From the IMG/VR virus record IMGVR_UViG_2778261256_000006, positions 1 to 55,611 of that record: a DNA stretch of 55,611 nucleotides, one strand, 5' to 3'. Below the pieces are notes generated by a model that had not been told where the DNA came from, ran no database searches, and saw nothing but the letters and a program-made list of their open reading frames with translations. This DNA comes from a virus (taxonomy: Duplodnaviria > Heunggongvirae > Uroviricota > Caudoviricetes). The position numbers and the translations under genes were made by a program. Every line of letters begins with the position of its first letter. Positions within the stretch are counted from its first letter, which is position 1. Shown one piece after another: positions 5,817-51,217 of this stretch.

Positions 5817-5997
5817 CCACTTCATCTACACTCGCGGCATTGGAAGCAAAGATATGGTCGTCTGGCACCTGATGCACATTGATAAGGCTATCAACCACAC
5901 GCTGGAGAAGTTCTTTCCACCAGCCTGAACACAATGATTGTGCGCCTTATAGCGCCCATTAAGATAGATAAGTACTTACCAACAAGGAGAAAACACA

Positions 5998-6272
5998 TGA
6001 AGACTTTGGTTCGCATTTCATCTAGTACCGACTATGACGTTTACCCGTTGTTCATGATCAAGTGCGACGGGCTGAACGATGAAGAAATTCAAGCGGCAAT
6101 TGAACGCAATCTAGTTGAATACACAGGAATGGATGCGGATTCTATTTATATCGATGATGACGGTGTTTGTTGGCACAACGGTAGCTGCTGGTACGTCGAC
6201 GACACAATGCTGGTAAGCGATGAAGACGCGGCCCATCTTGAGCGCATTTTGGGTATCAGCACTTTTGAGTGA
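5998..6272 (+). CDS. hypothetical protein
   Basis: ATG preceded by AAGGAG-like RBS; 91 aa; acidic C-terminus; no recognisable motif. Confidence 0.4.
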
Positions 6273-6311
6273 TATTTACAGCAAAAATATATAAGTTAGC
6301 ATTTACCTATC

Positions 6312-6491
6312 ATGAAAATTTTATTAGATATCACGTTACTTATTATCTCGATAGCCTTTGTGCTCGACTGCATCTTCACAGGGGCAATCCGTAAAGCGCT
6401 GGCGCCTGTTAATGATGTGATGATCAATGCGCTGGCCGTAGTACTGGTCTTCGACTCAGCATTAGGCGTTTTCAAAGGAGTCGTGGCATGA
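6312..6491 (+). CDS. small hydrophobic (two predicted TM segments) protein, 59 aa, not in ORF track
   Basis: ATG..TGA ORF translating to MKILLDITLLIISIAFVLDCIFTG...; stop overlaps the ATG of the next gene (ATGA coupling). Confidence 0.4.
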   Translation: MKILLDITLLIISIAFVLDCIFTGAIRKALAPVNDVMINALAVVLVFDSALGVFKGVVA

Positions 6492-6823
6492 AGAAAACAG
6501 CCCTGGTACTGGCGCTGCTCACTCTCCCCGTCTTTGCGGACACACATGTCTATGAGTGCGAAATGTTTGTGGTCGAAGCGAAAAACGGCCTGATCCGCAA
6601 CGTCGTTAAAGCTAATTACGGCGCGATGGTTGTGGACCGTGGCGAACAGTTTTATGTGGTACGCGATGATCGCGTCCTGTCTTCCCCGTTTCTCACTAAA
6701 CGTAACGGCGAACTATCTGGCGTAGGTAAAGATAGGTTCGTTTACAACAAATCGGGTGATGTATACGGCGTTCACGCGAAGAACGACAGCTACCTTTTCG
6801 ATGACTGCAAGGAGATTAGTTGA
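6488..6823 (+). CDS. secreted hypothetical protein (N-terminal signal peptide)
   Basis: MKKTALVLALLTLPVFA signal-peptide-like N-terminus; translationally coupled to flanking small genes. Confidence 0.5.
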   Translation: MKKTALVLALLTLPVFADTHVYECEMFVVEAKNGLIRNVVKANYGAMVVDRGEQFYVVRDDRVLSSPFLTKRNGELSGVGKDRFVYNKSGDVYGVHAKNDSYLFDDCKEIS

Positions 6824-7035
6824 TGGCGGTTACACTGACAGGTCTGGAAATCGAAAAAACAAGCGGCTACTGGCGTGCCAAAGGGTTCAAGCAGTCCGGC
6901 GTACTGGAACGACTGGAACGTGAAGATGGGTATATTGTCCACCAGCGACGTGAATGGCACATGTACGATCCGGAAACAGGTAAGCTCGCAACGAAGGCCG
7001 GGACACTCTGGGGTCTGCTGAAGAAAATCCACTGA
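6820..7035 (+). CDS. hypothetical protein
   Basis: 71-aa ORF with start overlapping the upstream stop (ATGA); ends just before the iteron array. Confidence 0.4.
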   Translation: MMAVTLTGLEIEKTSGYWRAKGFKQSGVLERLEREDGYIVHQRREWHMYDPETGKLATKAGTLWGLLKKIH

Positions 7036-7042
7036 TAACACT

Positions 7043-7643
7043 ATCCACTGCGGTGAGTAGCCAGTTCACCGCGTGTGAATCCGGCTCATAACCACTGTAG
7101 CGAGTAGAACACCCTTCAGGTATGCCCCCCAACCACTGTAGTGAGCAAACCCTCTGCCACGATATCAACTATCCACTGTAGTGAGTAAATTGGTGATTAT
7201 CGGGGTCGCTATACACTGTAGTGAGTAAACAGGCGTTCACTGACTACAAACAACCACTATAGAGAGTGATGGAATGCCCCCTCCAGCGGATATCCACTAT
7301 GGAGAGTAAATCTTCGCTGTTTTAAACGGATATCCACTCACTACAGTGGATAGAGGTCAAGTCAGCCAATTCTGCTCTTCACAGTGGATAGTCAACAATG
7401 AGGAGAGCGACGATAACCGCTGTAGAGAGTAGACTTAACAGAGATACCCAGTGACCGCTAACCTCTCAGCCCTTGTTTTATCTATGTTTGCAACCACTAA
7501 CATTTACTTCGCGATTTGTGCGCACTGCCTACAGTGGTTATTCTTCGGTTTCTTTTACTCACTACAGTGGATATTGCATTTCCGATAAACAAAAAGGCTC
7601 ACTACAGTGGATAGTGAGCCTTTTTACTCTCTACAGTGGTTGG
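7043..7643. repeat. iteron array downstream of repA (about 14 copies of CCACTGTAGTGAGTA-like repeats, both orientations)
   Basis: Repeated TATCCACTGTAGTGAGTAA-like units at irregular 30-45 bp spacing, some as inverted pairs (e.g. 7330-7352). Confidence 0.85.
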
Positions 7644-7644
7644 G

Positions 7645-9421: not shown

Positions 9422-10066
9422 ATGGATCTTAAACGCACGCGCTGGGTTCGCCGTCTTGAAGATGGCTCCTACACCATTGAATCAAACACTAGTCTGAACA
9501 AACAGAAGTTGCTCTGCGACCTTTGCGGCATTGCTTCGAAATGCCCGATTAACGAAACCCGGCTTAAACTCCACGACGCCGGTGCGCATTTCCACCTAAA
9601 CAGCTGCATACGTTACGTGCCACTACTAGCATTTCGTAAACCGATCATCGGATTGGATGCTCCCTACTTCAACACACTGCGCTCTGGTGTCACTTGGCGA
9701 GATCGTGTCGAACCTGGCAAACTCGTTTGTCTGGTTGAAGCTGATACCGGAAATGTCATCCGGTTCGGGAGAGTTGATAAGGTCTACTCAGGCCCAGTGG
9801 ATGAAATGCTGCGGAAACACAGCCGATTTAACCATCTCTGCATGGGCGGAGAGAAGATTGAGAAGGTTGGCGAAGTAATTCGCAAATCTTACGGACACTT
9901 TCTGAATGATAACAGCCTTCTGACAGCCATTTACATTCGCCATGTCGATCGGGAGTTCGACACGGAGTATCACAGTGCTGAAGAGTTGAATCTTGTAGAC
10001 CCTCGTCCAAAAGCTGGGGTAATAGACATCAGCAGAGCGCGTCAGAAGCCCTCAGAGACGTTTTAA
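9422..10066 (+). CDS. hypothetical protein (possible ASCH/PUA-like beta-barrel; weak)
   Basis: 214-aa ORF adjacent to the origin region; no strong motif. Confidence 0.45.
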   Translation: MDLKRTRWVRRLEDGSYTIESNTSLNKQKLLCDLCGIASKCPINETRLKLHDAGAHFHLNSCIRYVPLLAFRKPIIGLDAPYFNTLRSGVTWRDRVEPGKLVCLVEADTGNVIRFGRVDKVYSGPVDEMLRKHSRFNHLCMGGEKIEKVGEVIRKSYGHFLNDNSLLTAIYIRHVDREFDTEYHSAEELNLVDPRPKAGVIDISRARQKPSETF

Positions 10067-10462
10067 AGGCAAACTCATGCTTTTTACCGGGCATAAAATA
10101 TGGTGTCTTAGAAAGACACTGAGAGCTTTAGGGATTAATGCATGAGTGAATTTTATTCAAGAGCAGAAACTGTGGCCGACGGATGCGTTTGAAGACGACG
10201 CACGCAAACGCCGTAGATGTCATCTCACAACTTCACCGTCCGTTCTCCTTTTTCATTTCTTGTCATCAGTAAATGACTGCTCTCATAAAATTGCTTGTGA
10301 CGTTTAGAAATCGTTGCTGCCCTATCTGATAGGTATTTACTTACTTATTTTTTTGTCATTATCATGTGCCTTTATATTCTTTTGTGTGCCGTGTTGTCTG
10401 GGTTGTACGCCTCTTATGCACGCTTAGAATTTGTATCAAAATAACCACAAAGGAAAAGACAC

Positions 10463-11548
10463 ATGACATTGCCATACGGGGTAATATCAGATCCCCATTA
10501 TCATCGTTGGGATGCTTTTGCGACAACAAACGCTGACGGGCTTAACTCTCGGCTGGAGATCCAACTGGACGCTACGAAGGAGGCGGCCAAAGCGATGAAA
10601 GCTGCTGGCTGTAAGCACATGCTGGTAGCTGGTGATACCTTCCATGTTCGCGGTGCTATATCACCTTCCGTTCTGCATTTCGTGACCGAAACTTACGAGT
10701 GGATCATCAAAGAGTTGGGTCTCAAGGTGGTAATGCTGGCTGGCAACCACGACCTCGAAACCAACGATTCCGTATACAGCGCCAATGCAGCAGCCTCTCT
10801 GCGCTCAATCGGTGTGGAAATCGTCTGCGGCAAACGTCCTCATTCCATCAAAATGGGCGACGTAACCGTCCATCTGATTAGCTGGCGTAATAACCACGCA
10901 GAACTTATCAGCGATCTCAAAACGCTGCGTTCCGGGCTGGATGGTGACAACCATGATGTTGTTGTACATACCTCAATCAACAAAGCGATCCCCACCATGC
11001 CCGATGTCGGCATCGACGCACAGGAACTGAAAGATATCGGCTTCCGTTTATTGTTGTCCGGGCACTACCACAACCACAAAGAAGTGCTGCCTGGAGTGGT
11101 AAGTATCGGGGCGCTGACACACCAGAATTGGGGGGATGTTGGTTCACTGGCCGGCTTCATGATCGTCAAACCGGACGGCTCATTCACTCACCACGAAACC
11201 TCGGCACCTAAATTCGTGAACCTTGAGGACGATGTAGATGACGATCAGATTCGCGGCAACTACGTGCGCTTCCGTGCCGTTGTTGAGAGCGATGAAGAAG
11301 GCATCAAACTTCAGAACGTCCTGAAAACAATGGGCGCGAAGGGTGTCGTCTGCAACTTCATTCGCAAGGCATCGATGATGGAAGGCGCTGCCAGTACTGC
11401 GGAAACCAGCAAAATTGACAGCCTGGGAGAGTCCGTTGCGGCGTACTGCAAGATCGTTCACGACACTGACGGTGGCTTCGACCTGAGCAAACTGGACATA
11501 CTGTGTCAGGAGATCTTGACCGAAGCAGAGAGTGCGGAGGCTGTGTGA
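10463..11548 (+). CDS. SbcD/Mre11-family metallophosphoesterase nuclease (phage recombination nuclease)
   Basis: Calcineurin-like phosphoesterase motifs (DPHY, GDTFH, GNHD, GHYH); upstream of an SbcC/Rad50-like ATPase. Confidence 0.85.
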   Translation: MTLPYGVISDPHYHRWDAFATTNADGLNSRLEIQLDATKEAAKAMKAAGCKHMLVAGDTFHVRGAISPSVLHFVTETYEWIIKELGLKVVMLAGNHDLETNDSVYSANAAASLRSIGVEIVCGKRPHSIKMGDVTVHLISWRNNHAELISDLKTLRSGLDGDNHDVVVHTSINKAIPTMPDVGIDAQELKDIGFRLLLSGHYHNHKEVLPGVVSIGALTHQNWGDVGSLAGFMIVKPDGSFTHHETSAPKFVNLEDDVDDDQIRGNYVRFRAVVESDEEGIKLQNVLKTMGAKGVVCNFIRKASMMEGAASTAETSKIDSLGESVAAYCKIVHDTDGGFDLSKLDILCQEILTEAESAEAV

Positions 11549-14441: not shown

Positions 14442-15181
14442 GTGAGAGGAAGAGCGACAAAATTAAGAAAAGATGCGAAACCTATCAATCCCGACGATTT
14501 CGACGGAAATTTCATTAGAGAGTTGGAGCCAATATTTGATTCAAGGGGGCGTAAGCGCCGAATTGTTGAGCTTGAATGCTTTATCTGCGGTCATCGATTC
14601 TCTGCAACCTTGAGAATGCGAAGCGAGTCAGACAGAAGACCTGCTCAAACAAATGTGCCGGAATATATCGCCAGAACGCAGAATATAAAGTCATGGAAAA
14701 CCCTCTGTACTGGACTTGGGCAAGTATGAAGGCGCGTTGTAACAATCCAAATCGGGCAAGATACGAAAAGTATGGAGGACGGGGAATATCTTACGCCACC
14801 GGGTTCGAGGATTTTGATAATTTTTACAGGTATGTTTCCGTACTTGAGGGCTATCCGTTTTCCGATACGGAGAGAGTTGTAGAGGGGGTTACGCTTGATC
14901 GCATCGACTCCAGCAAGGGATATGAACCAGGGAATCTGAGGTGGGCTGACAAGCACGTCCAGAGTGCAAATAAACAAGGGAAAGTGGATGGTAGTACGTC
15001 GAAGTTTACTGGCGTTCATTACTGCAAAACGAACAAGGTTTGGGTTGCTAGAGTTGTGTGGAAAGGAGAGTGTGTCTTCTTGTATCAATGTCACGATGAA
15101 TTGGAGGCTTACTTAGCGCGTAAGCGATTTATCGAAGAGCACAATCTACCGCATTTTGTTGAAATGGAGGTCACAGAGTGA
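14442..15181 (+). CDS. HNH homing-endonuclease-like protein with AP2 domain; apparent frameshift near 14600
   Basis: RBS AAGGAG then GTG at 14442; N-terminal CFICGHRF in frame 0; TCSNKCAG, YGGRGI, HNH-like (GYEPGNLRWAD) and AP2-like (KFTGVHYCKTNKVWVARV) segments in frame 2. Confidence 0.6.
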
Positions 15182-15747
15182 AAAAAGTAATCAAAGTTGC
15201 AGGTCTCGATCCATCTCTGTCAAATTTTGGCGTTGCCATCGGAGAAATAGAACTGGATTCAGGTGCATTGCAGGTCAATAAGTTGCATCTCATTGAGACG
15301 AAAGCTGGTGATACGAAAAAGCAAGTTCGCGTTAACAGTGACGATATGCGGCGGTTGAACGAGATTTGGCGTGGTATTAAGCCACTGATTGACCAAGTTC
15401 ATTTAGTGTTCTGCGAACTGCCAGTAGGCAGTCAATCTGCTAGAGCGATGGTTTCTTATGGTGGTTGTCTTGGCGTACTGGCGTGTGTGGATAAGCCACT
15501 GATACAGGTCACGCCAAACGAGATTAAGTACTATGTCGGGAATAAGCTGACTACGTCGAAAGAAGAGATCATTCAGTGGGCTACGCAGAAGCAGCCAAAC
15601 GCCCCGTGGTTGCGCCGGAAGCAATCGGGCAAGGAAGTGCTGGTGAATAAAAACGAGCACCTTGCGGACGCTGTCGCATCGATTTACACCGGTATGCAAA
15701 CTGATCAATTCCGTCAGGTTCGCGATGTTCTTGCTGGAATTTTATAA
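15178..15747 (+). CDS. RuvC-like Holliday junction resolvase
   Basis: RuvC motif I (VAGLDPSLSNFGVAIG), conserved acidic residues (CELP, HLADAVA); start overlaps the upstream stop. Confidence 0.7.
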   Translation: MKKVIKVAGLDPSLSNFGVAIGEIELDSGALQVNKLHLIETKAGDTKKQVRVNSDDMRRLNEIWRGIKPLIDQVHLVFCELPVGSQSARAMVSYGGCLGVLACVDKPLIQVTPNEIKYYVGNKLTTSKEEIIQWATQKQPNAPWLRRKQSGKEVLVNKNEHLADAVASIYTGMQTDQFRQVRDVLAGIL

Positions 15748-15784
15748 GTTGATAATTGATAGGTAAGTGCTTATCTATTACCAT

Positions 15785-15812
15785 GAGACCACTATATATA
15801 GTGGTCTTTTTA
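15785..15812 (+). terminator. rho-independent terminator
   Basis: Hairpin AGACCACT-ATATAT-AGTGGTCT followed by TTTTTA. Confidence 0.6.
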
Positions 15813-18765: not shown

Positions 18766-18936
18766 TACTCAATAAGGAGGCGACAAATATCTTACGTGTA
18801 GTTGTCAGTTGAGTATTAAGTAAACTCAATAAACTTATAAGTATCTCCCTGTGCAGCCTGTGAATCCTTATTTATTACCTACTCAATTTTGAAATAATAA
18901 CACCAACAAAAAAACAATTTGTTTAATGGTGCAATC

Positions 18937-20622: not shown

Positions 20623-20684
20623 TAGGTAAATACTTACCTAATCTAGGTAAGAATATAGTGACTATATGATAAGAGAAAAAACAC

Positions 20685-38630: not shown

Positions 38631-38639
38631 GGATTTGCC

Positions 38640-41484: not shown

Positions 41485-41868
41485 GTGTTTATTGAAGCAT
41501 TTGCGAGCCTGATGCAGAAGGCGAAGATCGGCACACTCGGCACTGACATTTTCTGTCACTACATGCCAGCCAATGTGAAGTCCGGCGTCCTGTTGGTTAC
41601 TCCCAATACGGGGATCGCCATTGACCATGAGTTAAAAGGCTTTTATCACGACTCTTTTACCGTCATCGTGCGTAATGCGACGATCACAAAGGCGGTGGCG
41701 AAAGCCAATAAGATCATGGACATGTTTCCCGTCGAGGAAACCGTGTCAGATGGCGTTTACTTCCGGTTGGTACGACCAATGTCGATGCCGATAACTTATC
41801 CAAAAAACGAAGGCTCGTTGATTGAAGCGGGCATCCCGATTGAATTTGCGGGCTATTTGTTGAATTAA
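41485..41868 (+). CDS. tail terminator-like protein (tentative)
   Basis: 127-aa ORF immediately upstream of the major tail gene. Confidence 0.4.
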   Translation: MFIEAFASLMQKAKIGTLGTDIFCHYMPANVKSGVLLVTPNTGIAIDHELKGFYHDSFTVIVRNATITKAVAKANKIMDMFPVEETVSDGVYFRLVRPMSMPITYPKNEGSLIEAGIPIEFAGYLLN

Positions 41869-41942
41869 CAAAATAAGTAAGTATATACTTACTATTGGCG
41901 CCATGAAGGTGCTGATTTAACGGAAAAAGGAGTTTTCCAACA

Positions 41943-42689
41943 ATGTCCAATACCCATGTAAAAAACATCAAACTTGGCGCCTGCAAAGTGTCGTTTGGTG
42001 GTGTTGATCTGGGTTACACCAAAGGCGGTGTTCAGGTTGAGGTTGCGACCGAAACTCTGAAAGTTACCGTAGACCAGCTAGGGCAAACCACCATCTCCGA
42101 GCTGGTACAGGGCCGTAACATCACTATCACTGCGCCGCTGGCCGAGTCTGTGTTGCAGAATATGGTCGATCTGATGCCGGGTTCTACCCTGAGTGAAGAA
42201 GATAACTCTGTGACCATCACTTCCGCACAGGGCGTCAATCTGATCGACGTAGCTAAAGAGCTGGTTCTGACCCCGCAGGATACCACCGACTACGTTCTGA
42301 CCATCCCGAAAGCTGCGACCGCAGGTAACTTCACTATGACCTACCAGTCTGATGATGTTCGCGTGTTCTCGGTTCAGTTCACCGCTTACCCGGATGACGA
42401 CGGTATTCTGGGGAAAATGAGCGGCCCAAAGCCGGTTAAATCCGTCTCTATCTCTCCGGATTCTCCGGAAGTTAAAGCCGGTGAGAGCGTGCAGCTGGCA
42501 GCCCAGATCACACCTGCAGATGCCGGCGACAAAACCGGTGTGTGGGAGTCCGACAATCAGGAGAAGGCTACCGTTGATCAGACTGGTCTGGTTCGCGGAG
42601 TAGCTGAAGGTTCGGCAAATATCTCCTTCACCAGCAATAGCGGCGGCAAGAAAGCGACCAAAGCTGTAACGGTTAATTCTGCCGAATAA
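41943..42689 (+). CDS. Major tail protein with C-terminal Ig-like (Big_2-type) domain
   Basis: 248 aa; C-terminal about 80 aa Ig-like (VKSVSISPDSPEVKAGESVQLAAQITPADA..TVN); followed by a terminator and the G/GT chaperone genes. Confidence 0.7.
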   Translation: MSNTHVKNIKLGACKVSFGGVDLGYTKGGVQVEVATETLKVTVDQLGQTTISELVQGRNITITAPLAESVLQNMVDLMPGSTLSEEDNSVTITSAQGVNLIDVAKELVLTPQDTTDYVLTIPKAATAGNFTMTYQSDDVRVFSVQFTAYPDDDGILGKMSGPKPVKSVSISPDSPEVKAGESVQLAAQITPADAGDKTGVWESDNQEKATVDQTGLVRGVAEGSANISFTSNSGGKKATKAVTVNSAE

Positions 42690-42705
42690 TCGTGACGTGA
42701 CTAAG

Positions 42706-42734
42706 CAGAGGCTCAGGAAGAGCCTCTCTTTTAA
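42706..42734 (+). terminator. terminator/attenuator after the major tail gene
   Basis: GAGAGGCTC-AGGAAG-AGCCTCTC followed by TTTTAAAA. Confidence 0.6.
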
Positions 42735-42748
42735 AAGGATTTTAACCA

Positions 42749-43066
42749 ATGACCAAATTACTCGATCTCGACTCCATTCTACCTCCGAAGAAAAGTATCA
42801 AGTTCGGCGGTCAGGAATACCCCATCGTTGAAATGACAGTTGGTCTGTTCGTCTCCATCAAGCAGATGGAAGGCAAAGATCTTCAGAACATGTCTCCTGT
42901 AGAGCAGGTTACTGCTTACGCCGACCTGGTTCGCAAGGTCATCCCATCCGTGCCGGACGCTGTACTGGAAAAACTGACTGTTCCGCAGCTTCAGCAAATC
43001 TTCACCTTCGCTATGGAAGTGATTGATGAAGAGAACGAAAAAGCGGCTGGTGAAGGGGCAAAGTAA
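42749..43066 (+). CDS. Tail assembly chaperone (gpG-like)
   Basis: 105 aa, acidic C-terminus; directly upstream of an overlapping -1 frame ORF and the tape measure gene. Confidence 0.65.
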   Translation: MTKLLDLDSILPPKKSIKFGGQEYPIVEMTVGLFVSIKQMEGKDLQNMSPVEQVTAYADLVRKVIPSVPDAVLEKLTVPQLQQIFTFAMEVIDEENEKAAGEGAK

Positions 43067-43416: not shown

Positions 43417-46400
43417 CAAGGGAATGTCACAAAACGTAGAGTTTGTCCTGTCGCTGGAAGACAAGCAGTTTACAGCGTCAATCGACCGGGCGGGTAAGCT
43501 ACTTACCAGATTCGGGGAGCAGGCCACAAAACCAGCTCAGAAAATTAACAATCTGGAACGCTCGTTGGGTTCGGTCTCCCGCATCATCGGCGTTCTGGAG
43601 TCCAAGCTCGATGCCACGGCAGACAAACTACAGGATGTAGCTGCCGGCTTCGAACTTGTGTCTGATGTTTCGCGCAAGACGCGAGGCAACATTACCAGCC
43701 TCAATTCAGGTCTCAAAACCCTGATTGAGCGCGTCGACACAACCACCTCTTCCGTTAATAAGCTCACCACATCGTTGCGCAAGGTTCAGTCTGAACTCAA
43801 TGAGTTTTCCGATTGGGCAACGTTCGCTGGTAAGAGCGCCAGCCGCTTCGGTACGGAGGTAAAAGAAGCCTCTACATCTGTGAGTGGTATGAATACGCGC
43901 CTTAACACCACGACGAAGCGTCTCAGTAATTGGGGCGTCACAACGAACCAGGCTGCCGAGGGGCTGAAGAAAGTCCGCGATCAGATGGATGCGGTGATTG
44001 GCCGCCAGCAGCTGATCAGCAAGCCGGTGCGTGTGCGCACCAGCGGCTACGGTGAGGGCGGTGGTAATGGCGGTGGCGGTCGACACAGCGGTTCCTATGG
44101 CCACGGCGGGCGCGGTGCTGAAAATGGCGTGTTCTCTGGTCTGCGCGGCAATATTTTCCTGCTGGGCGAGATTGGTGATGCGGCAAGAACGGTAACTGAC
44201 ATCCTGTTCGGCTGGCAGAAGCCAATCGTCGAAGCTGCCTCCAAAATGGAGCGTATGCGCGTCATGTTGCGCGGGCTGAACAAGGACAAGGCCAACCCTG
44301 GCAAAGCAGCCGCAGAGGATATGCAGTACATCGTGGATATGGCGCAAAACGCCCCGTTTGCGATGCAGGCGCTGACCGATTCCTTCGTTAAATTCCGCTC
44401 GGCAGGTCTCGATCCTACTGACGGTTCGCTGAAAGCATTGGTGGACTCTGTTGCACGCTTCGGCGGCGATAGTGAACTGCTAAAACGCGCAGCAGTGGCC
44501 GTCCAGCAGATGTCCGGTAAGGGCGTCGTTTCGATGGAAGAACTGCGTCAGCAATTAGGTGAAGCCGTTCCTAACGCGATGAAAGCGATGGCAGACGCTG
44601 CCGGCATTACTATGGGGGAACTGACCAAAGCAGTCTCCAGCGGTACTGTGGAAGCGAAACAGGCGTTATCGCTGATGTTCGTTGGTCTGCGTGCAGAGAA
44701 CGAAAACGCCGCCAAAGACATGATGCAAACCTACACCGGTGCGCTGGCGCAACTACAAACCTCCTTTACGTTGTTCGCCGATCGTGTCGGTCAGACGGGC
44801 TATCTGGATTCTCTCTCTAAGGGAATGAAAGAACTAGCCTCCATCATGAATAGCGCAGAAGGGATTTCGTTTGCTAATTCTTTAGGTTCGGGGTTAACGA
44901 CGGCAATCGATGGGTTGCGTCAGCTTGCTCAATGGTTAGCAAAGAACCAAGAGCTGGTAATTAATCTTGGTAAGGTCGTGGCCGCGATGGTTGCGTTCAA
45001 ACTGATGCGAGCAGGGATCATGGGGGTAGTTGGCGCTGGGAGCCAGATGGTTAGCACCTTTGCCACGATGGCGACCGCCATACAGACTCCATTTAACCTC
45101 GGCGCTACAGCAGTAACTCGATTCAATCGTGCGGCACGTATGGGGCTGGCTCCGATCCCCTCTCTTATTTTCGCCATCCGTGGGGCGATTACGGGGCTTA
45201 AAGGCGCTTTTGCTGGATTAACGGCGTTCATTGCAGCAAATCCAATTGGCGCTGCGTTTACCGTGGCAACCGTGGCCGGGTTGATCACGTATATGACCAT
45301 GCTTCGCAGCGAAACGTCAAAAGTCGTTGACGAGATTAGGAAAATACCAGAGGCGATGACGGCGGCCAAACGTGCACAAATGGCGGAGTATAAAGCGCGT
45401 CTTGAGCAACAAATCACGCAAAAGGAACAAGAGTTAAAATCTGGCGAAAAGGTGGTTTATGGGCCGGGTATGGCCGGAACTACAGTAAAGATTAATCAGG
45501 ATGAACGTAAACGTATAGAAAATGAGCTAAATGACCTTCGTGAGAAACGCGATAAAACTACTGGGGCAATTGAACGCGGAGACACTGCTGTAGCCAAACG
45601 TCTTGCAAAAGATGCGGCAGAATCACAGATAGAGAAAATACGGGAAGAGAATAGAGACTTTGCGGCAACATTCGCTAAAGCTCGTCAAGAGGCTCTGGAG
45701 AAGATCCAAAAAATCAATGATGACGATTCACTTTCTGATGACGAAAAGAACAAACTATTGGCACCGTTACGTGAAACGGTAAACAAAAGCTATCTGGAGC
45801 CTGCGCAAAAACTGGTTGATTCACTTTCTTCTCGTAAGAATGCGACCGAGAAGCAAATCGCGACTCTTAATGATCAGCTTGAAAAAGCCAAAAAAGATGG
45901 CAATACCGAGCAGATCCAGAAACTGCAAGGCAGTATTCGTGGTTATCAGGAGCATTTGGAAGCCGTTGCTCAGGAGCTGACTCAGGCAGAGTTCGAGAGA
46001 GATAATGCGGCCAAAACTGGTAAGGGCGTAATGTCAAACCAGGGGACTGTTCTTGGGTTAGGTACAACTGATAAAGCTGCTCAGAAGGCGCTGGCGCAAT
46101 ATATGCGAAACCAGATGGATTCTGCGACTTATCAGCGTACTTTGCCTGACGGCACTCCGATGATGGACTTCGAAGGTAAGCCGATTATTGGGCCTAAACA
46201 ACTCAAGACGCAGCTTAATTTGCAGAAAGCATCCAGTGCCAGCTCTCTGGAGAAAATGAGCGATGCGGAACGCGCCGCAGCCATTGCAGCGCTGACCAAA
46301 GCGCGCGAACAGGATGCCGCAGCAGCGGAAAAAGCCGGGCGACGTACAGCCAATGCTTCTCAGCGTGCGGCCAAGAAAGAACAGGCAGCGCAACAGAAAC

Positions 46401-46912
46401 TGGCGGCCGGATATCCAACAGCGTATGGAAATATCATTCACCTGAAAGGGATGACAGCCGTTGGCGAAGGTGAGTTACTCATCGGCTGGAGTGGTACAAG
46501 CGGTGCTCATGCTCCGGCATTTATTCGTTCACGACGGGATACGACCGACGCAAACTGGTCGCCGTGGGCGCAGCTTTACACCTCGGCTCATCCTCCTGCA
46601 GAGTTTTATCCAGTCGGTGCACCAATCCCGTGGCCATCAGATACCGTTCCGTCTGGCTATGCCCTGATGCAGGGGCAGACTTTTGACAAATCTGCATACC
46701 CGAAACTTGCAGTTGCTTATCCGTCAGGCGTGATCCCTGATATGCGTGGCTGGACGATTAAGGGCAAGCCCGCCAGTGGTCGGGCCGTATTATCTCAGGA
46801 ACAGGACGGCATTAAATCGCACACCCACAGCGCCAGCGCATCCAGTACGGATTTGGGGACGAAAACCACATCGTCGTTTGATTACGGCACTAAATCTGGA
46901 CAAACTTCTTAA
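43403..46912 (+). CDS. Tail tape measure protein, C-terminally fused in frame to a tail-fibre collar-like fragment
   Basis: 1169 aa; coiled-coil-rich, Gly-rich stretch ([18 protein letters not shown]); final about 150 aa carry a tail-collar-like motif ([49 protein letters not shown]). Confidence 0.75.
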
Positions 46913-47046
46913 CCGGCTCGACACCATCTCCAGTGGGTTCTTTGGCGGCATTGTTTCGAAAATAACGTCGTTCATTATTACCGTACTGCTTTTAGGATTG
47001 GCCGCGTATGGCGTAAAAAATGGATTGCAATAACAGGAGATCAAGG

Positions 47047-47739
47047 ATGAAAACTCCGAGAGGCATTCGTAATAACAACCCCGGTAATCTTGATAAAGGA
47101 GCGCCGTGGCAGGGCTTAGTCAACAACTCTTCAGAACCGCGCTTCTGCACGTTTAAAGACCCCGTGTGGGGGATTCGGGCATTGGCAGTGACACTCATTA
47201 CTTACCACGACAAGCGCCGCGCAAAAGATGGCTCCAGCATTGATACGATCCGCGAAGTCATCGAACGCTGGGCGCCTCCACATGAGAACAACACTTTGGC
47301 TTATGTGAACGAGGTATCCAAAGCCGTTGGAGTAGCACCAGATATGATTATCGATCTGCATGACTACGAGACCTTAAGGCCGCTGGTAGAGGCGATCATT
47401 AGACATGAAAATGGCCGAGGTCCGCTGAAAACTCCCAATAGCTGGTATACACCAGAACTTATCGAAGAAGGTCTGCGGCGTGCCGGCATTGTCAAACCGG
47501 TAAAGGCTGTAAAAGCCGTTCCTGTAACAAAAGAAACCGCAGGTGCTACAGTCACTGCAGGTATTGGCCTTGCACAAATTGCTGACGTTATGCCTCAAGT
47601 TTCTGCCGCAATGGATAAAGCGCAAGGCAATATCTCCAGTGGAGATACGGTACGCATCATCTTTGGCGTAGCTACCATTCTTGTGGCAGCATTCATTGCC
47701 TGGTCACAGGTGCGCAAACACCAGAACGGGATGGTCTGA
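47047..47739 (+). CDS. endolysin-like / cell-wall-hydrolase-like protein with C-terminal TM segment (tentative)
   Basis: AGGAGA RBS; directly upstream of Rz/Rz1; C-terminal hydrophobic helix (IIFGVATILVAAFIAW); enzymatic family not recognised. Confidence 0.4.
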   Translation: MKTPRGIRNNNPGNLDKGAPWQGLVNNSSEPRFCTFKDPVWGIRALAVTLITYHDKRRAKDGSSIDTIREVIERWAPPHENNTLAYVNEVSKAVGVAPDMIIDLHDYETLRPLVEAIIRHENGRGPLKTPNSWYTPELIEEGLRRAGIVKPVKAVKAVPVTKETAGATVTAGIGLAQIADVMPQVSAAMDKAQGNISSGDTVRIIFGVATILVAAFIAWSQVRKHQNGMV

Positions 47740-47740
47740 T

Positions 47741-47992
47741 ATGACCGGCAGCCTATTTTCAAAACTGAAGTTTGCTTTGATGACTCTGGCTGCCGTTCTT
47801 TTCGTGCTTGTCGGCGCTTATACGATGGGAGGTCGTGCGGCCCGGCAAGCAATAGAAGAGAAGGCAAGGCAGGAGGACAGGAAAAGGCTTCAAGGCACAG
47901 TGGACGTCAAAAATGAGATACTTAATGAAGTGCGGCGGAAAGATGCTTCTGCTGTTCATCGCGAGCTGCATGACAAGTGGCTGCGTGATTAA
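47741..47992 (+). CDS. i-spanin (Rz-like)
   Basis: N-terminal TM (LKFALMTLAAVLFVLVGAY) then charged coiled-coil; contains the start of an overlapping +1 frame lipoprotein gene. Confidence 0.7.
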   Translation: MTGSLFSKLKFALMTLAAVLFVLVGAYTMGGRAARQAIEEKARQEDRKRLQGTVDVKNEILNEVRRKDASAVHRELHDKWLRD

Positions 47993-48155
47993 GACACAGA
48001 CTTCTGGCGTGCTGTTTTGTGATGCAGCAAACCCTATTTATGTCAGTAACGACGACTTTATGACCGAAGAGACGGAACGCGAGATCCTCTTCCATAACAC
48101 GATGGGAGAGCGATTGTGCAATTGGCAACCGTCATTGTCGCCAAATAACATTTGA
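47913..48155 (+). CDS. o-spanin (Rz1-like lipoprotein), overlapping Rz in a different frame
   Basis: Lipobox (LLLFIASC / MTSGC); starts inside the Rz ORF and extends past it. Confidence 0.65.
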   Translation: MRYLMKCGGKMLLLFIASCMTSGCVIKTQTSGVLFCDAANPIYVSNDDFMTEETEREILFHNTMGERLCNWQPSLSPNNI

Positions 48156-48208
48156 ATGTGATTTAGGCGAAAGGCACTCTTTTTTACAGATCGAGTGCCT
48201 TCTTCAAT

Positions 48209-48760
48209 TTACAGATCTGAATCGTCGTACCAGTTACGGTCTACATCTGACTTTACAGAGAGGAAAGTGAGGCTATCGTCCACAAGGCTCCACTCATAAC
48301 TGCGGAAGAGCAGCTCCATTTCGGCTTCAACAGAAAAAGACGTGCCAGAGTAAGCTCTATCTGGATCTTGGTCTCCCTGATACTCGAAAGTAACAGTCAC
48401 AGACAAAATACCTTTATCTTGATTGTAACTAACTTTCGTAGCCTCAGGGTCTTCCATGGTAAATCCATTAGCGTTCGTTTCTGCAATATCGCCAGAAAGC
48501 TGTTCCTCAACTTCGCGCTCAAGGGCGCTAAAAACGCCCTCATGGAAGATTACTTCTTTGAGGGAGGTTTCGCCTAATGCTGCAAAGACGAGACGTGAAT
48601 CCATAGGGTCGCGTTTGGCAACTTCCGAAAGCTCATGATAGCTGGGGAACTGTGCTTCTTTAGCGACAATTTCCAACGCTTCGGTTCGCTTGATCCCTTT
48701 AACGCTGGACAATTCTTTTGCTTTGGATTTAAGAATGCTAAGGCAAGAGTAGTCAGACAT
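48209..48760 (-). CDS. hypothetical protein
   Basis: 183-aa acidic ORF convergent with the lysis genes. Confidence 0.5.
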   Translation of the reverse strand: MSDYSCLSILKSKAKELSSVKGIKRTEALEIVAKEAQFPSYHELSEVAKRDPMDSRLVFAALGETSLKEVIFHEGVFSALEREVEEQLSGDIAETNANGFTMEDPEATKVSYNQDKGILSVTVTFEYQGDQDPDRAYSGTSFSVEAEMELLFRSYEWSLVDDSLTFLSVKSDVDRNWYDDSDL

Positions 48761-49038
48761 GGCGTCATCTCCAAAAGTAAGTTTATGAATGCTACCGATA
48801 GCCTGCTAACCGGACGCGTCAAAACTACTTTGGCGAGCCAAGTTTAAATAAAACGTTGTTTAACGATGGGCTATTGCTTTGCGAGACAGGCGCCAGGTGA
48901 CCATCACCACCTGTCTTCATACTAACCAGGGAGCTTTTTCGAGTCAAATTTACATTCGGCTAATTTGTTAACTACCTATAAGTGCCTGACATTTCACCTT
49001 TACACCGCAGCTGTAGGCATTTAGGCTATATCGCATAT

Positions 49039-49057
49039 AAGAAAACAAGTTGTTTCA
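49039..49057. promoter_or_regulatory. operator-like palindrome upstream of parA
   Basis: AAGAAAACAAGTTGTTTCA. Confidence 0.5.
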
Positions 49058-49090
49058 TACGACAATAATTCACGCAAAGGAAACTCACCA

Positions 49091-49756
49091 ATGACCAAGA
49101 TCATTGTGGTTGGCGGCACAAAAGGCGGCCCAGGCAAATCTACCGTTGCCCAGCAAATTGCGGTATGTCTCAAAGTTAAAAAGAAAAAGAAGGTTCACGT
49201 CACCGATATCGATATCCAGCGCACCACGACCAGCTGGTGTGAAGACCGTCGCCAGAACGAAGATCTTGAACTGATCCCGTTCGCTTATGTGCAGGACGAC
49301 ATCGTCAAACATCTTAAATCGCTTCAGGGGCGAACTGATTATGTAGTGGTAGATGCTGGTGGCTTTGACTCCGAAATTCAGCGTCTGGCGATGCTTATGG
49401 CTGATGTAATCATCATCCCGCTGCGCCCTAAACGTCGTGATTTGAAATCTCTGCGTGATATCGACCCGATTATCGACAACGTTCGCAATGTGAACGAGAA
49501 AGTTAAGATCCGCGCGGTAATAAACCAGTGTCCGTCATTGCCTTCCCAGGTATCACGTATTCTGGCCGCGAAGGAAATTGTCGAAACTTTCGGCATCGAG
49601 GCTGCGCCGGTCAATCTGTACAACCGTAACGTTTATGACGATGCAGAAGAGGCTGGACGTTCTATCTTTGAAATGTCAGGCGCTGAACGCGATAAGAAAG
49701 CAGAAGCCGAATTTGGAGAGTTAGTAGATTACATCTTGAGTCTGGAGGAAGAATAA
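49091..49756 (+). CDS. parA: ParA-family partition ATPase
   Basis: Deviant Walker A (GGTKGGPGKST); 221 aa; followed by an overlapping small DNA-binding protein gene. Confidence 0.85.
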   Translation: MTKIIVVGGTKGGPGKSTVAQQIAVCLKVKKKKKVHVTDIDIQRTTTSWCEDRRQNEDLELIPFAYVQDDIVKHLKSLQGRTDYVVVDAGGFDSEIQRLAMLMADVIIIPLRPKRRDLKSLRDIDPIIDNVRNVNEKVKIRAVINQCPSLPSQVSRILAAKEIVETFGIEAAPVNLYNRNVYDDAEEAGRSIFEMSGAERDKKAEAEFGELVDYILSLEEE

Positions 49757-50115
49757 TGTCCATGAGAATGGGAGACCTTGCAAAGCGCAATGAGCCTAAA
49801 GAACCGGCCAAAAGCAGCACTCCACTGCGCCAGCCAGTCAGACCGCAGGGGCGTCCGACTCGTGGCAAAGAGAAGATTAAAAGCCGCACAATGTCGCTGG
49901 AAGACGAGTACTTCGAACTGTTGGAGATGATGAAGTTTATCCCTCGTTTTGAGAAGTTCACCCGTTCTGATGTGATTCGTGCAGCCATTTTCCATCTGGC
50001 AGAGAAGTCACCGCAGGAAATCGAAGACATCGTGAAACTGAACGAGGCGATCACTGCTGCCGACGTCACGATGCGTACCGACGAAATCAAACGAGAGTTG
50101 ATGAAGAAAGGTTAA
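49756..50115 (+). CDS. small partition protein (ParG/ParB-like centromere-binding protein)
   Basis: 119 aa, basic N-terminal tail; start overlaps the parA stop (TAATG). Confidence 0.6.
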   Translation: MSMRMGDLAKRNEPKEPAKSSTPLRQPVRPQGRPTRGKEKIKSRTMSLEDEYFELLEMMKFIPRFEKFTRSDVIRAAIFHLAEKSPQEIEDIVKLNEAITAADVTMRTDEIKRELMKKG

Positions 50116-50118
50116 AAA

Positions 50119-50150
50119 TTATGCATTGGCGCAATGTACGCGCCAATGCA
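50119..50150. other. perfect 12-bp-arm palindrome immediately after the partition operon
   Basis: ATGCATTGGCGC-AATGTA-CGCGCCAATGCAT; no following T-tract. Confidence 0.5.
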
Positions 50151-50167
50151 TAAGTACAGTGTCAGCT

Positions 50168-50935
50168 TTATGCCGCGCTAACACTATGTTCATTCCTAAC
50201 CACCCCAACCTTCACAAAAGGGCTGCCGTAGCTTGGTGGCTTCTTGATTAATTTGCCTACATACAGTTTTCTAATATGCTCATCGGCTATTCTGCCAACA
50301 AATTCATAACGTTTTGTGTCGGGGCCAAGAGCTATATCCCTTGTAAAGTACTGCTGAGAACCGGCTTTGACCCAGCATTCAATCTGATAAACTTCCATTA
50401 TCAGGCCCCCATATGTAGCGTAGGCATATTTGAGATTCTCGTCTCTTGGAACCTTTGCCCATACGCCACGCGTAGCTTCATATAATGCCAGAGCGGACAT
50501 TCCTGACTTGTAGGTGCTGTTTAGCAGGAAGGCAAGACCGGCGTGCTCAGGAGCAATTTCAGTTTCCTCTTGCAGCACTAAGTGATGGTAGGCGTCCAGT
50601 GATATTCTGCCCATCATGGAACCACTTCCTCGTACCTTATTCGTAAGCTCTCCGACCCCCATAAGGTCGATGCATGTCGCCTCAACAAGTTTGGCTGTGG
50701 TTTCATCCATACCATGACGAAGAATATCTATGCCTAATTTTTTATTAGCCAAAAGTTCTTTGATCCGCATGGATTTGGGAGAGTCATCGGGATACTTGAT
50801 GTGATCGAGACAACGAGTCGATTTGCCTTTTCCTATGTAAAACGGTCTTTTCATCTTGTCTTCTGTATCATAGAGACAGTAAACATAGTATTTAGCCTTA
50901 TCCAATGATCTCGCGTATACCGATAAATCGTCCAT
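50168..50935 (-). CDS. GIY-YIG nuclease-domain protein (homing-endonuclease-like)
   Basis: N-terminal GIY-YIG-like motif (YYVYCLYD..PFYIGKGKSTRCLDH); flanked by AT-rich sequence. Confidence 0.6.
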   Translation of the reverse strand: MDDLSVYARSLDKAKYYVYCLYDTEDKMKRPFYIGKGKSTRCLDHIKYPDDSPKSMRIKELLANKKLGIDILRHGMDETTAKLVEATCIDLMGVGELTNKVRGSGSMMGRISLDAYHHLVLQEETEIAPEHAGLAFLLNSTYKSGMSALALYEATRGVWAKVPRDENLKYAYATYGGLIMEVYQIECWVKAGSQQYFTRDIALGPDTKRYEFVGRIADEHIRKLYVGKLIKKPPSYGSPFVKVGVVRNEHSVSAA

Positions 50936-51045
50936 TATTGCATCTCTTAGCTACTGACTAATGCGTTCTATTTTACACATAAGTTTTTAATCAATTTTAC
51001 AGGCTCAAAGTGTAGAGCTTCTGGGTGTCTAAGACGACAAGTTAT

Positions 51046-51100
51046 GCCTGTTTCTGTATATAAATAATAAGTAACTTATTAAATATATACGGAAGCAGGT
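51046..51100. repeat. palindromic element copy B, followed by T-tract
   Basis: GCCTGTTTCTGTATATA..TATATACGGAAGCAGGTC followed by TTTTAAAAG; near-identical right arm to 38929-38989. Confidence 0.6.
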
Positions 51101-51217
51101 CTTTTAAAAGACACCCACCAGAACAACTCCCTTCCGTTTCCACTTCCCAAAAATATCTCCAGTCGCTATGATTCGTTCACTTAGATAAGTAAGTACATAC
51201 CTATTAAAGGGAATCAT

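Follow-up and report, generated by a model that had tools for sequence, protein, structure and literature searches.

What kind of site is the short palindrome that recurs at gene-proximal positions along this viral DNA, and which protein would read it? The stretch analyzed here (55,611 nucleotides, IMG/VR record IMGVR_UViG_2778261256_000006; referred to as the window) represents about half of an SSU5/pHCM2-like phage-plasmid that has undergone deletion. A sequence-only reading had listed eight copies of a 10-12 bp palindrome and proposed that they mark a second regulator or a promoter class. All eight palindromes are present, and the set of genes which they mark is distinct from that of another motif of the same DNA, AAACAAnTTGTTT. 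The count of eight was too low, as a ninth good site at 6288-6313 had been missed, and the unit was too short, since GTAAGTACTTAC is the core of a palindrome of 24-26 bp with the arms tGATAGGTAAGT/ACTTACCTATca.

The palindromic site family

The recurrent sequence is a dyad-symmetric duplex-DNA site family which is predominantly intergenic and found family-wide in SSU5-like phage-plasmids. Its degenerate consensus reads a(T/A)(G/A)ATA(G/A)GTAAGT on one arm and ACTTAC(C/T)TAT on the other, and the conserved span of the site is 20-26 bp. The sequence TAAGTACTTA occurs exactly three times in the window versus 0.02 expected, and GTAAGTACTTAC with at most two mismatches gives ten matches versus 1.2 expected, a number reached in none of 100 shuffles. 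With a symmetric position weight matrix we found nine sites in the window, all nine of them intergenic, versus 0.0-0.15 in dinucleotide shuffles; in phage SSU5, which was left out of matrix building, the same matrix found 22-27 sites versus 0.0-0.1. The expectation by chance is about 0.1 sites per genome. A two-mismatch match at 31153 has a poor full-matrix score and is probably a chance occurrence. The sites in the window and their surroundings are as follows.

5961-5986, unstranded: palindromic site AAGATAGATAAGT/ACTTACCAACAAG, with orthologous sites in ET300 and SSU5; its centre is 23 nt 5' of ATG 5997 of a small gene homologous to SSU5 gp065.
6288-6313, unstranded: site unseen in the sequence-only reading, ATGATAGGTAAATGCTAACTTATATA on the reverse strand, score 23; placed between stop codon 6272 and ATG 6312 and overlapped by a promoter-like match at 6275-6302 (+ strand), with orthologues in SSU5, pJN2-26, and ET300.
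10326-10351, unstranded: palindromic site CTGATAGGTATTT/ACTTACTTATTTT (matrix and relatives), about 124 nt upstream of an SbcD-like metallophosphoesterase gene (10463-11548), with promoter-like TTTACT-18-TATCAT at 10336-10365 (+ strand).
15756-15781, unstranded: palindromic site TTGATAGGTAAGT/GCTTATCTATTAC (matrix and relatives), immediately 3' of the stop codon of ORF 15178-15747 and followed by a terminator-like hairpin at 15785-15808; promoter-like TTGATA-17-TACCAT at 15756-15784.
20619-20644, unstranded: palindromic site ATGATAGGTAAAT/ACTTACCTAATCT (matrix and relatives), overlapping the stop codon of a DUF4942 methylase-like gene (18919-20622), its centre 53 nt 5' of ATG 20685.
28438-28463, unstranded: palindromic site TTGTATTGTAAGT/ACTTACTTATGAT, whose 12-mer core is perfect (matrix and relatives), preceded by a hairpin and T-run, its centre 48 nt 5' of ATG 28499; promoter-like TTGTAA-17-TAAAAT at 28443-28471 (+ strand), promoter score 12.9.
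35464-35489, unstranded: palindromic site ATGTTAAGTAAGT/ACTTACACAATGG, its core perfect and its outer arms degenerate, within the 64 nt separating two divergent genes, that of a DEAD-box helicase (start 35421, - strand) and the first of the ParB-like pair (ATG 35486); a site is also found at this junction in SSU5, pJN2-26, ET300, and pAYP-A2, a plasmid of Acinetobacter.
41870-41895, unstranded: variant site AAAATAAGTAAGTATATACTTACTAT, about 58 nt 5' of the gene for the major tail protein (41943-42689), with promoter-like TTGAAT-18-TATACT at 41860-41889; SSU5, pJN2-26, and ET300 have the identical variant at the identical junction.
51057-51082, unstranded: candidate auxiliary site TATATAAATAATAAGTAACTTATTAA of uncertain membership, weak score of 10-13, about 125 bp upstream of the 51182 site; a weak pJN2-26 counterpart lies at 74856.
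51182-51207, unstranded: palindromic site TAGATAAGTAAGT/ACATACCTATTAA (matrix and relatives), its centre 23 nt 5' of GTG 51218 of the gene preceding dnaB.

The variant at 41877-41892 differs by a central TATA (GTAAGTATATACTTAC), and its position is conserved in relatives.

Conservation and distribution among relatives

Both the occurrence of the family above chance, measured against shuffles and expected counts, and its conservation in related elements held up. Complete relatives from E. coli, Salmonella, and Klebsiella (ET300, SSU5, and pJN2-26) carry 22-28 copies per genome, and about 90% of these copies are intergenic in genomes which are 86-88% coding. For 21 of the 22 alignable SSU5 sites an orthologous site was found in pJN2-26 (about 80% DNA identity); core positions were 87.5% identical versus 72.1% for the flanks, the core figure being inflated by motif-based selection. 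All 31 exact matches among viral contigs were SSU5-like. Across 5,426 E. coli genomes there were 640 matches on plasmids and none on chromosomes, which speaks against a host regulon. The family extends to Acinetobacter phage-plasmids, whose TerL is 61% identical and which carry the motif variant TAGTAAGYGCTTACTA, partly at shared junctions. In the Acinetobacter relative there were 29 copies of the variant GTAAGYRCTTAC versus 2.4 expected, and 24 of the 29 were intergenic, including those at the TerL/portal and helicase/ParB junctions. No such palindrome family was found in the syntenic Pseudomonas phage nickie, a single, distant, and GC-rich lineage, which has the ParB-like operon and in which no XRE/repressor, integrase, or partition (ParA) gene is annotated. 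When the genomes of the relatives were scanned, no copy was seen upstream of repA or parA. We found no published description of this site family.

Symmetry and promoter context of the sites

The left and right half-sites share one logo and one count matrix and are equally conserved. Non-Watson-Crick pairs between the arms, read on the transcribed strand, comprise 61 G·T versus 59 A·C, with no G·U bias on either strand. Equivalent half-sites and the lack of such a bias show no sign of selection for RNA pairing; they indicate recognition of duplex DNA by a symmetric, dimeric binder and not an RNA hairpin. The central bases are among the best conserved positions of the palindrome.

The promoter context was scored with sigma-70 matrices that are our own approximations. 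On this scale promoter-likeness over the sites averaged about 8-8.7 in the gene direction versus 5 in the reverse direction (Wilcoxon p = 1e-5, 2e-3, and 1e-4), and intergenic regions with the motif scored 8.8 versus 5.3 for motif-free regions of equal length (p = 5e-4). In the window, six of the 33 promoter-like matches overlap sites, where a hand calculation gives about 0.4 expected. About 40% of sites overlap a sigma-70-like promoter core in the gene direction and about half are without a convincing promoter. The -10 element falls anywhere from -13 to +32 from the site centre, a spread of about 45 bp, and where the strong promoter TTGAAA-17-TATGAT is present, the palindrome extends over its whole spacer and -10 element. 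Several copies are only 22-27 nt away from the next start codon, and there a Shine-Dalgarno sequence stands where the -10 element would belong. The sites thus resemble operators that sit at or close to ordinary promoters and not a new promoter type. Of the two proposals made earlier, that of a second regulator is borne out by a conserved, dyad-symmetric duplex site, while that of a promoter class finds no support in the form proposed, the site being symmetric, variable in register, and absent from nickie.

Two other functions of the sequence itself were weighed. The palindrome might be an activator site or a phage-specific promoter element which switches genes on in lytic growth, on the model of the late promoters of P1, where an inverted repeat near -22 and a -10 hexamer are recognised with Lpa. 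Many lytic genes do lie downstream of sites (portal, major tail, tail fibre, and holin among them), promoter-likeness is biased to the gene direction, and 40 of 65 sites (62%) have TAnnnT at +8 to +13 relative to their centre. That element, however, recurs in mirror image across the centre (A at -13 in 68%, T at +13 in 63%) and is thus part of the palindrome itself, and it is missing where a Shine-Dalgarno sequence takes up its position. An activator or sigma-type element needs a fixed geometry, but the best -35/-10 register varies over those 45 bp; at several copies the distance from the centre to the Shine-Dalgarno sequence and start codon is 10-27 nt, too short to accommodate a transcription start; at the strong promoter the palindrome is positioned to occlude RNA polymerase; and nickie, which lacks the family, must run its lytic programme with promoters of its own. 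We consider activation rather unlikely. It is highly improbable that the element acts as RNA, in the form of an intergenic hairpin which would terminate or attenuate transcription, be cut in RNase III-type processing, or act as a translational operator for an RNA-binding protein, for instance an FljA homologue. A perfect palindrome is able to fold, sites lie between co-directional genes and at times beside a ribosome-binding site, A-runs or T-runs flank some of them, and the element encodes a full-length homologue (PF03614, E = 1e-94) of FljA, a protein which acts on fliC mRNA. Against this, mismatches on the transcribed strand divide evenly into G·U-compatible and A·C ones (61 versus 59), the would-be loop consists of the well conserved central bases, the stems are rich in AT, and no site in the window was picked up by the terminator scan. 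Sites also occur in divergent promoter regions (35464), and in the Acinetobacter relative the motif is present while no counterpart of the FljA homologue was detected. The sites show neither a GC-rich stem with a U-tract nor a strand-specific tolerance of G·U.

Candidate binding proteins

On sequence evidence, the sites are somewhat more probably than otherwise bound as operators by a Cro/CI-type (XRE) repressor, whose gene neighbours that of the integrase, is known from relatives, and is located outside this window. It encodes a product of 126-139 aa, adjoins the site-specific integrase, and is transcribed against the bulk of the genome. The protein is 64% identical between ET300 and pJN2-26 and 37% identical to the Acinetobacter copy, which matches Pfam HTH_3 (7e-9). 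Its helix-turn-helix segment, GYKNxNNLSLIKSGKIPLP, is almost invariant while identity over the remainder ranges from 48% to 84%, and this near-invariance matches that of the motif. The AlphaFold model shows a confident five-helix core which matches C.AhdI, 434 Cro, the N-terminal domain of lambda cI, and SinR. In three enterobacterial lineages (ET300, pJN2-26, and pMB2617_2) the predicted promoter of the gene itself has its -35 element and start site covered by two motif-like copies; these copies are imperfect, the Acinetobacter gene also has copies upstream, and the arrangement is that expected of autoregulation. Against this link, copies also precede about 25 other genes. In Enterobacterales the per-genus counts of plasmids with the XRE gene match those with TerL. 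The XRE region is absent from phage SSU5 alone, an insert being found at this place in all 822 plasmid relatives, and SSU5 has kept 22-27 good sites without the gene. This pattern fits a recent deletion of the XRE gene and fits equally well a binder which is still encoded, such as the ParB-like proteins. Co-occurrence and the two imperfect own-promoter copies point to the XRE protein as the putative binder.

Other readers of the site would be the two ParB-family proteins encoded at 35486-36852, for which the palindromes could be parS/OB-like loading sites used in the manner of KorB, which binds about 12 dispersed palindromes, or Noc, which binds about 70, in silencing or organising the DNA. 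The alignment of the first ParB-like protein with Spo0J spans residues 13-161, past the N-terminal domain, a perfect-core site lies directly upstream of the operon, the junction site recurs in every lineage including Acinetobacter, and SSU5 retains both operon and sites. A ParB-family helix-turn-helix protein with a site at its own operon is present, but co-occurrence across relatives breaks down in nickie, a single lineage, which has the same order of helicase and ParB-like genes through to TerS-TerL and a homologue 33.5% identical over 91% of its length, and yet lacks the palindrome family; upstream of the nickie ParB-like gene no related site was found. The copy at the ParB-like operon is also among the weakest full-length scores (11-15 in SSU5 and pJN2-26), the conserved 20-26 bp exceed the 13-16 bp of known ParB-family sites, and an association with promoter cores is unexpected for plain parS sites, all of which makes loading by these proteins unlikely. 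Some other element-encoded binder, be it the 64-70 aa product divergent from the XRE gene, a TerS-like DNA-binding protein, or an unannotated core protein, is distinctly unlikely as well. Many core proteins are uncharacterised and SSU5 holds sites without an XRE gene; however, no candidate combines a recognised dimeric, sequence-specific DNA-binding fold with sites at its own promoter as the XRE protein does, and the small divergent gene has likewise been lost from SSU5.

Proposed mode of action

With the XRE protein as the reader, the plasmid-prophage state would be one in which the repressor occupies about 25-30 operators across a genome of 105-112 kb and keeps the viral genes silent. These sites stand at the heads of the gene blocks for replication/recombination, nucleotide metabolism, ParB-like/packaging functions, head, tail, and lysis. 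At the roughly 40% of copies on sigma-70 promoter cores facing downstream genes, binding would block initiation, and copies in very short gaps where no promoter is recognisable may stop read-through as roadblocks or serve as auxiliary sites. Genes of the plasmid state (repA, parA, and the accessory region), having no copy upstream, would escape. Repression upon XRE binding and the roadblock action are both what we infer from this arrangement. Counting against this reading are the roughly half of the sites without a convincing promoter, the terminator-like hairpin directly after the 15756 site, and the location of some sites in gaps of about 33 nt.

Comparison with known systems

Dispersed palindromes bound by one protein in silencing or DNA organisation are known from RK2 KorB (OB) and Noc (NBS). 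ParB-family genes with a site in front are present here too, but the site is longer than OB or parS and co-occurrence fails in nickie. With the Cro/CI operators of lambda, 434, and P22 and those of C-proteins the family would share dyad operators placed over -35, spacer, -10, or +1 and five-helix HTH dimers as readers; the XRE model matches the Cro/CI fold and the gene's own promoter has two copies. Lambdoid repressors use two or three clustered operator regions with operators usually of 14-17 bp, whereas here 25-30 single sites with a conserved span of 20-26 bp are spread over 100 kb.

The structural genes of P1 are controlled indirectly, through Lpa, unlike here, where copies lie within the head, tail, and lysis blocks themselves. 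The P1 C1 repressor acts at about 22 operators dispersed over a phage-plasmid of about 90 kb and keeps lytic functions off, its operators being asymmetric 17-mers, ATTGCTCTAATAAATTT (PMC8546580). Operator number (more than 20 here as well), dispersion, and the plasmid-prophage lifestyle are alike; the 24-26 bp palindrome is unrelated in sequence and the candidate is a small Cro/CI-type HTH protein. In L5 and other Cluster A phages gp71 has more than 20 sites genome-wide, located both at promoters and in the short gaps between genes of an operon; these sites are asymmetric 13-mers bound by a monomer and oriented with transcription (PMC9283540). Short intra-operon gaps are occupied here too, between TerL and portal (about 33 nt), tail M and L, and DUF4942 and the next gene, but the sites are symmetric and without orientation, the best-scoring strand being mixed among co-directional genes, and hosts and proteins are unrelated. 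Lytic D29 is an apparent deletion derivative of a temperate parent (PMC5712189), which parallels SSU5, where the XRE gene is lost and the sites are kept. The family resembles the P1 C1 operators and the L5 stoperators, but with a symmetric site.

The palindrome sites of the window

The window holds about half of an SSU5/pHCM2-type phage-plasmid; among complete relatives the 111.7-kb plasmid of E. coli ET300 stands closest to it (~99% identity where aligned). Comparison with ET300 shows that three blocks are missing from the window element:

Deletion junctions in the window
16104: deletion of ~8.3 kb, thyA-dfr-Dam-rnhA
40943-40959: deletion of ~5.7 kb, from the last ~15 codons (3' end) of TerL through portal, major capsid and head genes
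46408-46896: deletion of ~11 kb, from the distal tape measure to the tail fibre

The window element is a deletion derivative of an ET300-like phage-plasmid and is probably unable to make virions. It carries fewer palindrome sites than an intact relative because these blocks are deleted. The stretch 46408-46896 shows 98-99.8% identity with side-tail-fibre genes of lambda-like phages.

The sequence-only reading had listed eight copies of the palindrome, built on a short core, and had taken them to suggest a second regulator or promoter class. All eight are present where it placed them, and their occurrence is above chance: there are three exact copies of TAAGTACTTA in the window against 0.02 expected, and ten copies of GTAAGTACTTAC with up to two mismatches against 1.2 expected, a number reached in none of 100 shuffles. 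The count of eight was nevertheless too low, as a matrix scan of the window added a ninth site at 6288-6313. The two-mismatch match at 31153 was not accepted as a member; it scores only 9 with the full matrix and is probably due to chance. All nine sites are intergenic. Alignment of the sites on their centres also showed that the conserved unit is not the short core but a far longer palindrome of 24-26 bp, tGATAGGTAAGT/ACTTACCTATca.

Site anatomy was analyzed on 65 sites pooled from ET300, phage SSU5 and the Klebsiella phage-plasmid pJN2-26. The count matrices of the left and right half-sites are identical, both arms invariably have T at position 5 counted from the centre, T-9, A-8, G-6 and A-4 are nearly invariant, and position 7 is A or G, chosen in each arm independently of the other. 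Among non-Watson-Crick arm pairs on the transcribed strand, G·T and A·C occur in equal measure (61 and 59), and the central bases, which would form the loop of a hairpin, rank among the best conserved. From the equal half-sites, the conserved centre and the lack of a G·T excess over A·C we infer that the palindrome acts as duplex DNA and is recognized by a binder of two-fold symmetry.

Distribution in related elements

With a symmetric matrix, 23-30 sites were found in ET300, 22-27 in SSU5 (which was left out of matrix training) and 20-28 in pJN2-26, while dinucleotide shuffles of these relatives gave 0.5 sites or fewer. About 90% of the sites are intergenic, though the genomes are 86-88% coding. 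Conservation in related elements was borne out by comparison of SSU5 with pJN2-26 (~80% DNA identity), in which 22 of 26 SSU5 sites could be aligned and 21 of these 22 have an orthologous site; identity is 87.5% at core positions and 72.1% in the flanks, a difference that is inflated because both members of each pair were chosen on the motif. All 31 exact 18-mer matches in IMG/VR lie on SSU5-like contigs, and in 5,426 complete E. coli genomes there were 640 near-consensus matches on plasmids (~106-230 kb) and none on chromosomes. Acinetobacter baumannii phage-plasmids, whose TerL protein is 61% identical, carry a variant palindrome, tataGTAAG(C/T)GCTTACtaata, in 29 copies against 2.4 expected. 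Of these, 24 are intergenic, and the sites include the TerL/portal, helicase/ParB-like, nrdB/nrdA and upstream-of-sbcD junctions.

Pseudomonas phage nickie shares the whole gene order (helicase/ParB-like, ABC, TerS-like, TerL, portal, DnaB, primase, ligase, cobT/S, DnaE, SSB, sbcCD, nrdAB, thyA), and Nickievirus phages keep the SSU5 gene order nearly end to end. No integrase, partition or repressor gene is annotated in nickie, and neither de novo palindrome nor k-mer searches of it found the dispersed palindrome family; restriction of the sites to temperate elements is based on this one distant phage. The nickie searches gave only terminators, sigma-70-like early promoters (aaacGCTTGCA) and one palindrome at TerL/portal:

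9430-9461 of the nickie sequence L044: 32-bp palindrome, GCACTATGGTTTGGA-CT-TCCTTACCATAGTGC

Its arm CTTACCATAG resembles the SSU5 half-site, and the palindrome may be a relic or a precursor of the site family.

Genes and promoters around the sites

The sites are found between genes of the same direction, with no fixed spacing: their centres stand 11 to >200 nt before the next start codon. A TAnnnT sequence is found at +8 to +13 from the centre in 62% of sites, and its mirror image is equally frequent on the opposite arm, so that it is part of the palindrome. The symmetry of the palindrome makes the reverse orientation an internal control for promoter scores. With our own approximate sigma-70 matrices the best site-overlapping promoter scored on average ~8-8.7 in the gene direction versus ~5 in reverse (p = 1e-5, 2e-3 and 1e-4 in the three genomes), with the -10 falling between -13 and +32 relative to the centre. 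SSU5 intergenic regions of equal length scored 8.8 with a site and 5.3 without one (p = 5e-4, same approximate matrices). An independent pattern scan of the window placed five gene-direction and one reverse promoter-like matches on sites, where a hand calculation gives an expectation of ~0.4. The clearest examples have the palindrome filling both spacer and -10 of a near-consensus promoter, as with TTGAAA-17-TATGAT, which lies within the portal gene at its 3' end. No convincing promoter was seen at roughly half of the sites; some stand in gaps of ~33 nt with the Shine-Dalgarno sequence directly after (e.g., the TerL/portal gap), and the site at 15756 is followed by a terminator-like hairpin.

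The idea of a promoter class was not supported in the form proposed. The palindrome as a self-contained sigma-70 promoter was rejected, as only 14 bp separate its -35-like and -10-like ends and the window as a whole holds no more promoter-like matches than chance predicts. A T7-type or alternative-sigma promoter was likewise dismissed, the site being symmetric and an RNA polymerase gene being annotated in no enterobacterial element. The Acinetobacter plasmid pAYP-A2 does encode a sigma factor, for which tblastn found no homologue in SSU5, ET300, pJN2-26 or the window:

68800-69465 of pAYP-A2 (18800-19465 of its excerpt L042): sigma-70-family factor, between the cobS-like ATPase gene and dnaE

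The candidate regulator

ET300, pJN2-26, Enterobacter pMB2617_2 and the Acinetobacter plasmid encode a protein of 126-139 aa, named XRE by NCBI family, whose gene adjoins a site-specific integrase; the gene lies outside the window and is known from these relatives. The gene runs opposite to most of the genome and diverges from one of 64-70 aa. Its family name, domain match, predicted fold and a conserved segment of the protein point to a DNA-binding protein of the Cro/CI type. The ET300 and pJN2-26 proteins are 64% identical; the Acinetobacter copy (37%) matches Pfam HTH_3 (E = 7e-9). An AlphaFold model shows a confident five-helix core (pLDDT ~90), with C.AhdI, C.BclI, 434 Cro, the lambda cI N-terminal domain and SinR as best structural matches (weak E-values; TM-score on target 0.7-0.8 and rmsd ~2 Å over the HTH domain). 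The segment GYKNxNNLSLIKSGKIPLP is nearly invariant while the remaining protein ranges from 48% to 84% identity, which matches the invariant enterobacterial motif; in Acinetobacter both this segment and the motif are altered. Two motif-like copies, conserved in three enterobacterial lineages, lie over the predicted -35 (TTTACA) and start region of the XRE gene's own promoter. In a collection of 5.8 billion proteins all homologues with long contigs are on contigs of ~100-116 kb. The numbers of PLSDB plasmids with XRE match those with TerL in each genus (Klebsiella 348/345, Escherichia 230/208, Enterobacter 92/93, Yersinia 63/62, Salmonella 49/50). Yersinia pestis plasmids (~95-101 kb, PLSDB) carry an SSU5-type TerL (99.3% identical) and an XRE regulator (83.7% identical) that adjoins an integrase (e.g., NZ_CP009841.1 29680-30063), and the control circuit is probably present in them too.

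Phage SSU5 lacks the XRE region. The corresponding place is 42596-42761 of SSU5 (sequence L004), at the tRNA-Asn/cobT junction, across which SSU5 is not collinear with any of 822 plasmid relatives. The one relative examined has ~6.7 kb at that junction:

43816-50558 of pMB2617_2 (sequence L047): phoH, gp49, grxA, YafO toxin gene, integrase, XRE regulator, small divergent gene

With that region missing and the palindrome sites kept, SSU5 looks like a repressor-deletion derivative, comparable to D29 among L5-like mycobacteriophages (PMC5712189); the loss would explain its behavior as a plaque-forming phage.

The AAACAAnTTGTTT motif and neighboring genes

The palindrome marks a gene set distinct from that of the other recurrent motif, AAACAAnTTGTTT, as the sequence-only reading had proposed: the palindrome is missing upstream of repA, of parA and of the accessory-gene block, where AAACAAnTTGTTT is found instead. 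The window features concerned here are:

16742, 17713, 18912, 23685, 24001, 24430, 25994, 28042, 39049, 49043, 51972: exact 13-mers of AAACAAnTTGTTT (n = 11)
32567-33136, minus strand: full-length FljA homologue (PF03614, E = 1e-94)
35486-38906: conserved operon ahead of the terminase genes

With up to one mismatch AAACAAnTTGTTT has 20 sites in SSU5, all intergenic, with centres mostly 19-28 nt before the start codon and directly 5' of the Shine-Dalgarno sequence (agaAAACAAnTTGTTTaaggag). It precedes TerS, parA, dnaB, cobT, nrdB, Rha and accessory genes. No exact copy was found in the Acinetobacter relative (three with one mismatch) and none in phage nickie. The fixed spacing to the ribosome-binding site suggests a mode of action different from that of the GTAAGTACTTAC sites.

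FljA is the Salmonella repressor of phase-1 flagellin. Its homologue is found in the enterobacterial relatives with no detectable counterpart in the Acinetobacter one, and may be a lysogenic-conversion gene acting on host flagellin. In the operon two genes for ParB-family proteins are followed by one for an ABC-type ATPase, a small ORF, a gene for another ATPase and a further small ORF; in a relative, the second of these ATPases is annotated as a fusion with a predicted acyltransferase domain. The gene order is kept in Acinetobacter plasmids and largely in nickie.

Discussion

The palindrome is, with little doubt, the binding site of a symmetric DNA-binding regulator encoded by the element. 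That this regulator represses is fairly likely, and we lean, by a narrower measure, towards the full model in which the XRE protein is the dimeric operator binder and repressor. In the plasmid-prophage state an XRE dimer would occupy 25-30 palindromes, block initiation where the palindrome lies over a promoter core and autoregulate its own promoter, while promoter-less copies may block read-through or aid cooperative binding. We offer only as a tentative proposal, and one we think rather doubtful as a whole, that a single XRE dimer at ~25-30 sites silences the ~100-kb plasmid-prophage, with promoter-less copies in the packaging, head and tail operons (e.g., the 33-nt TerL/portal gap) acting as elongation roadblocks. 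Such a system would be an independently arisen equivalent, Gram-negative and dyad-symmetric, of the actinophage stoperators; it would be conserved between Enterobacterales and Acinetobacter and still be present in Yersinia pestis pMT1.

Among other explanations, activator sites or a promoter element are unlikely, given that the palindrome is symmetric, its register varies, some sites are cramped and nickie lacks the family. Loading sites for a ParB-like or KorB-like protein are marginally less probable still: the alignment of the first ParB-like protein with Spo0J extends past the N-terminal domain, its operon is preceded by a site in every lineage and the genes are still present in SSU5, but the homologous operon of nickie comes without the sites, and the copy in front of the operon is one of the weakest. 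It is improbable that another protein of the element is the binder; the FljA homologue is an unlikely one, since no counterpart of it was detected in the Acinetobacter relative and none of the sites lies close to its gene, and no Rha-like or AlpA-like regulator is annotated in pJN2-26. A host transcription-factor regulon was rejected on the lack of chromosomal matches in E. coli and the persistence of a motif variant in Acinetobacter. A role of the palindrome in RNA is the most remote of these: a hairpin would be expected to tolerate G·U and avoid A·C, whereas the two mismatches are equally common and the centre is conserved, so that an RNA hairpin, terminator or RNase III site was rejected. 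A terminator scan of the window flagged no palindrome site.

SSU5/pHCM2/pKpn/pSLy3-type phage-plasmids are common in clinical Enterobacterales and carry resistance genes (PMC9600943, PMC12217456). Judged by homology of TerL and XRE, Yersinia pestis and Acinetobacter plasmids belong to the family as well. The searchable literature describes neither their lysis-lysogeny control nor the motif or any SSU5-family immunity control. With an operator defined, its regulon mapped and a candidate repressor named, this gap becomes experimentally approachable. The operator set would predict which genes are silent in the plasmid state, and provides a sequence signature by which family members can be recognized, even degraded ones like the window element.

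In its way of working, through dispersed sites, the proposed system resembles P1 C1, with 22 dispersed operators in a phage-plasmid (PMC8546580), and L5 gp71, with more than 20 sites in promoters and short intergenic spaces (PMC9283540). The palindrome lacks the defining sequence features of both, because it is symmetric, whereas the P1 C1 and L5 sites are asymmetric, with monomeric binding in the case of the L5 repressor. Classical Cro/CI operators have the same site chemistry as the palindrome, but they are clustered in two or three regions, while here the sites are spread over 100 kb.
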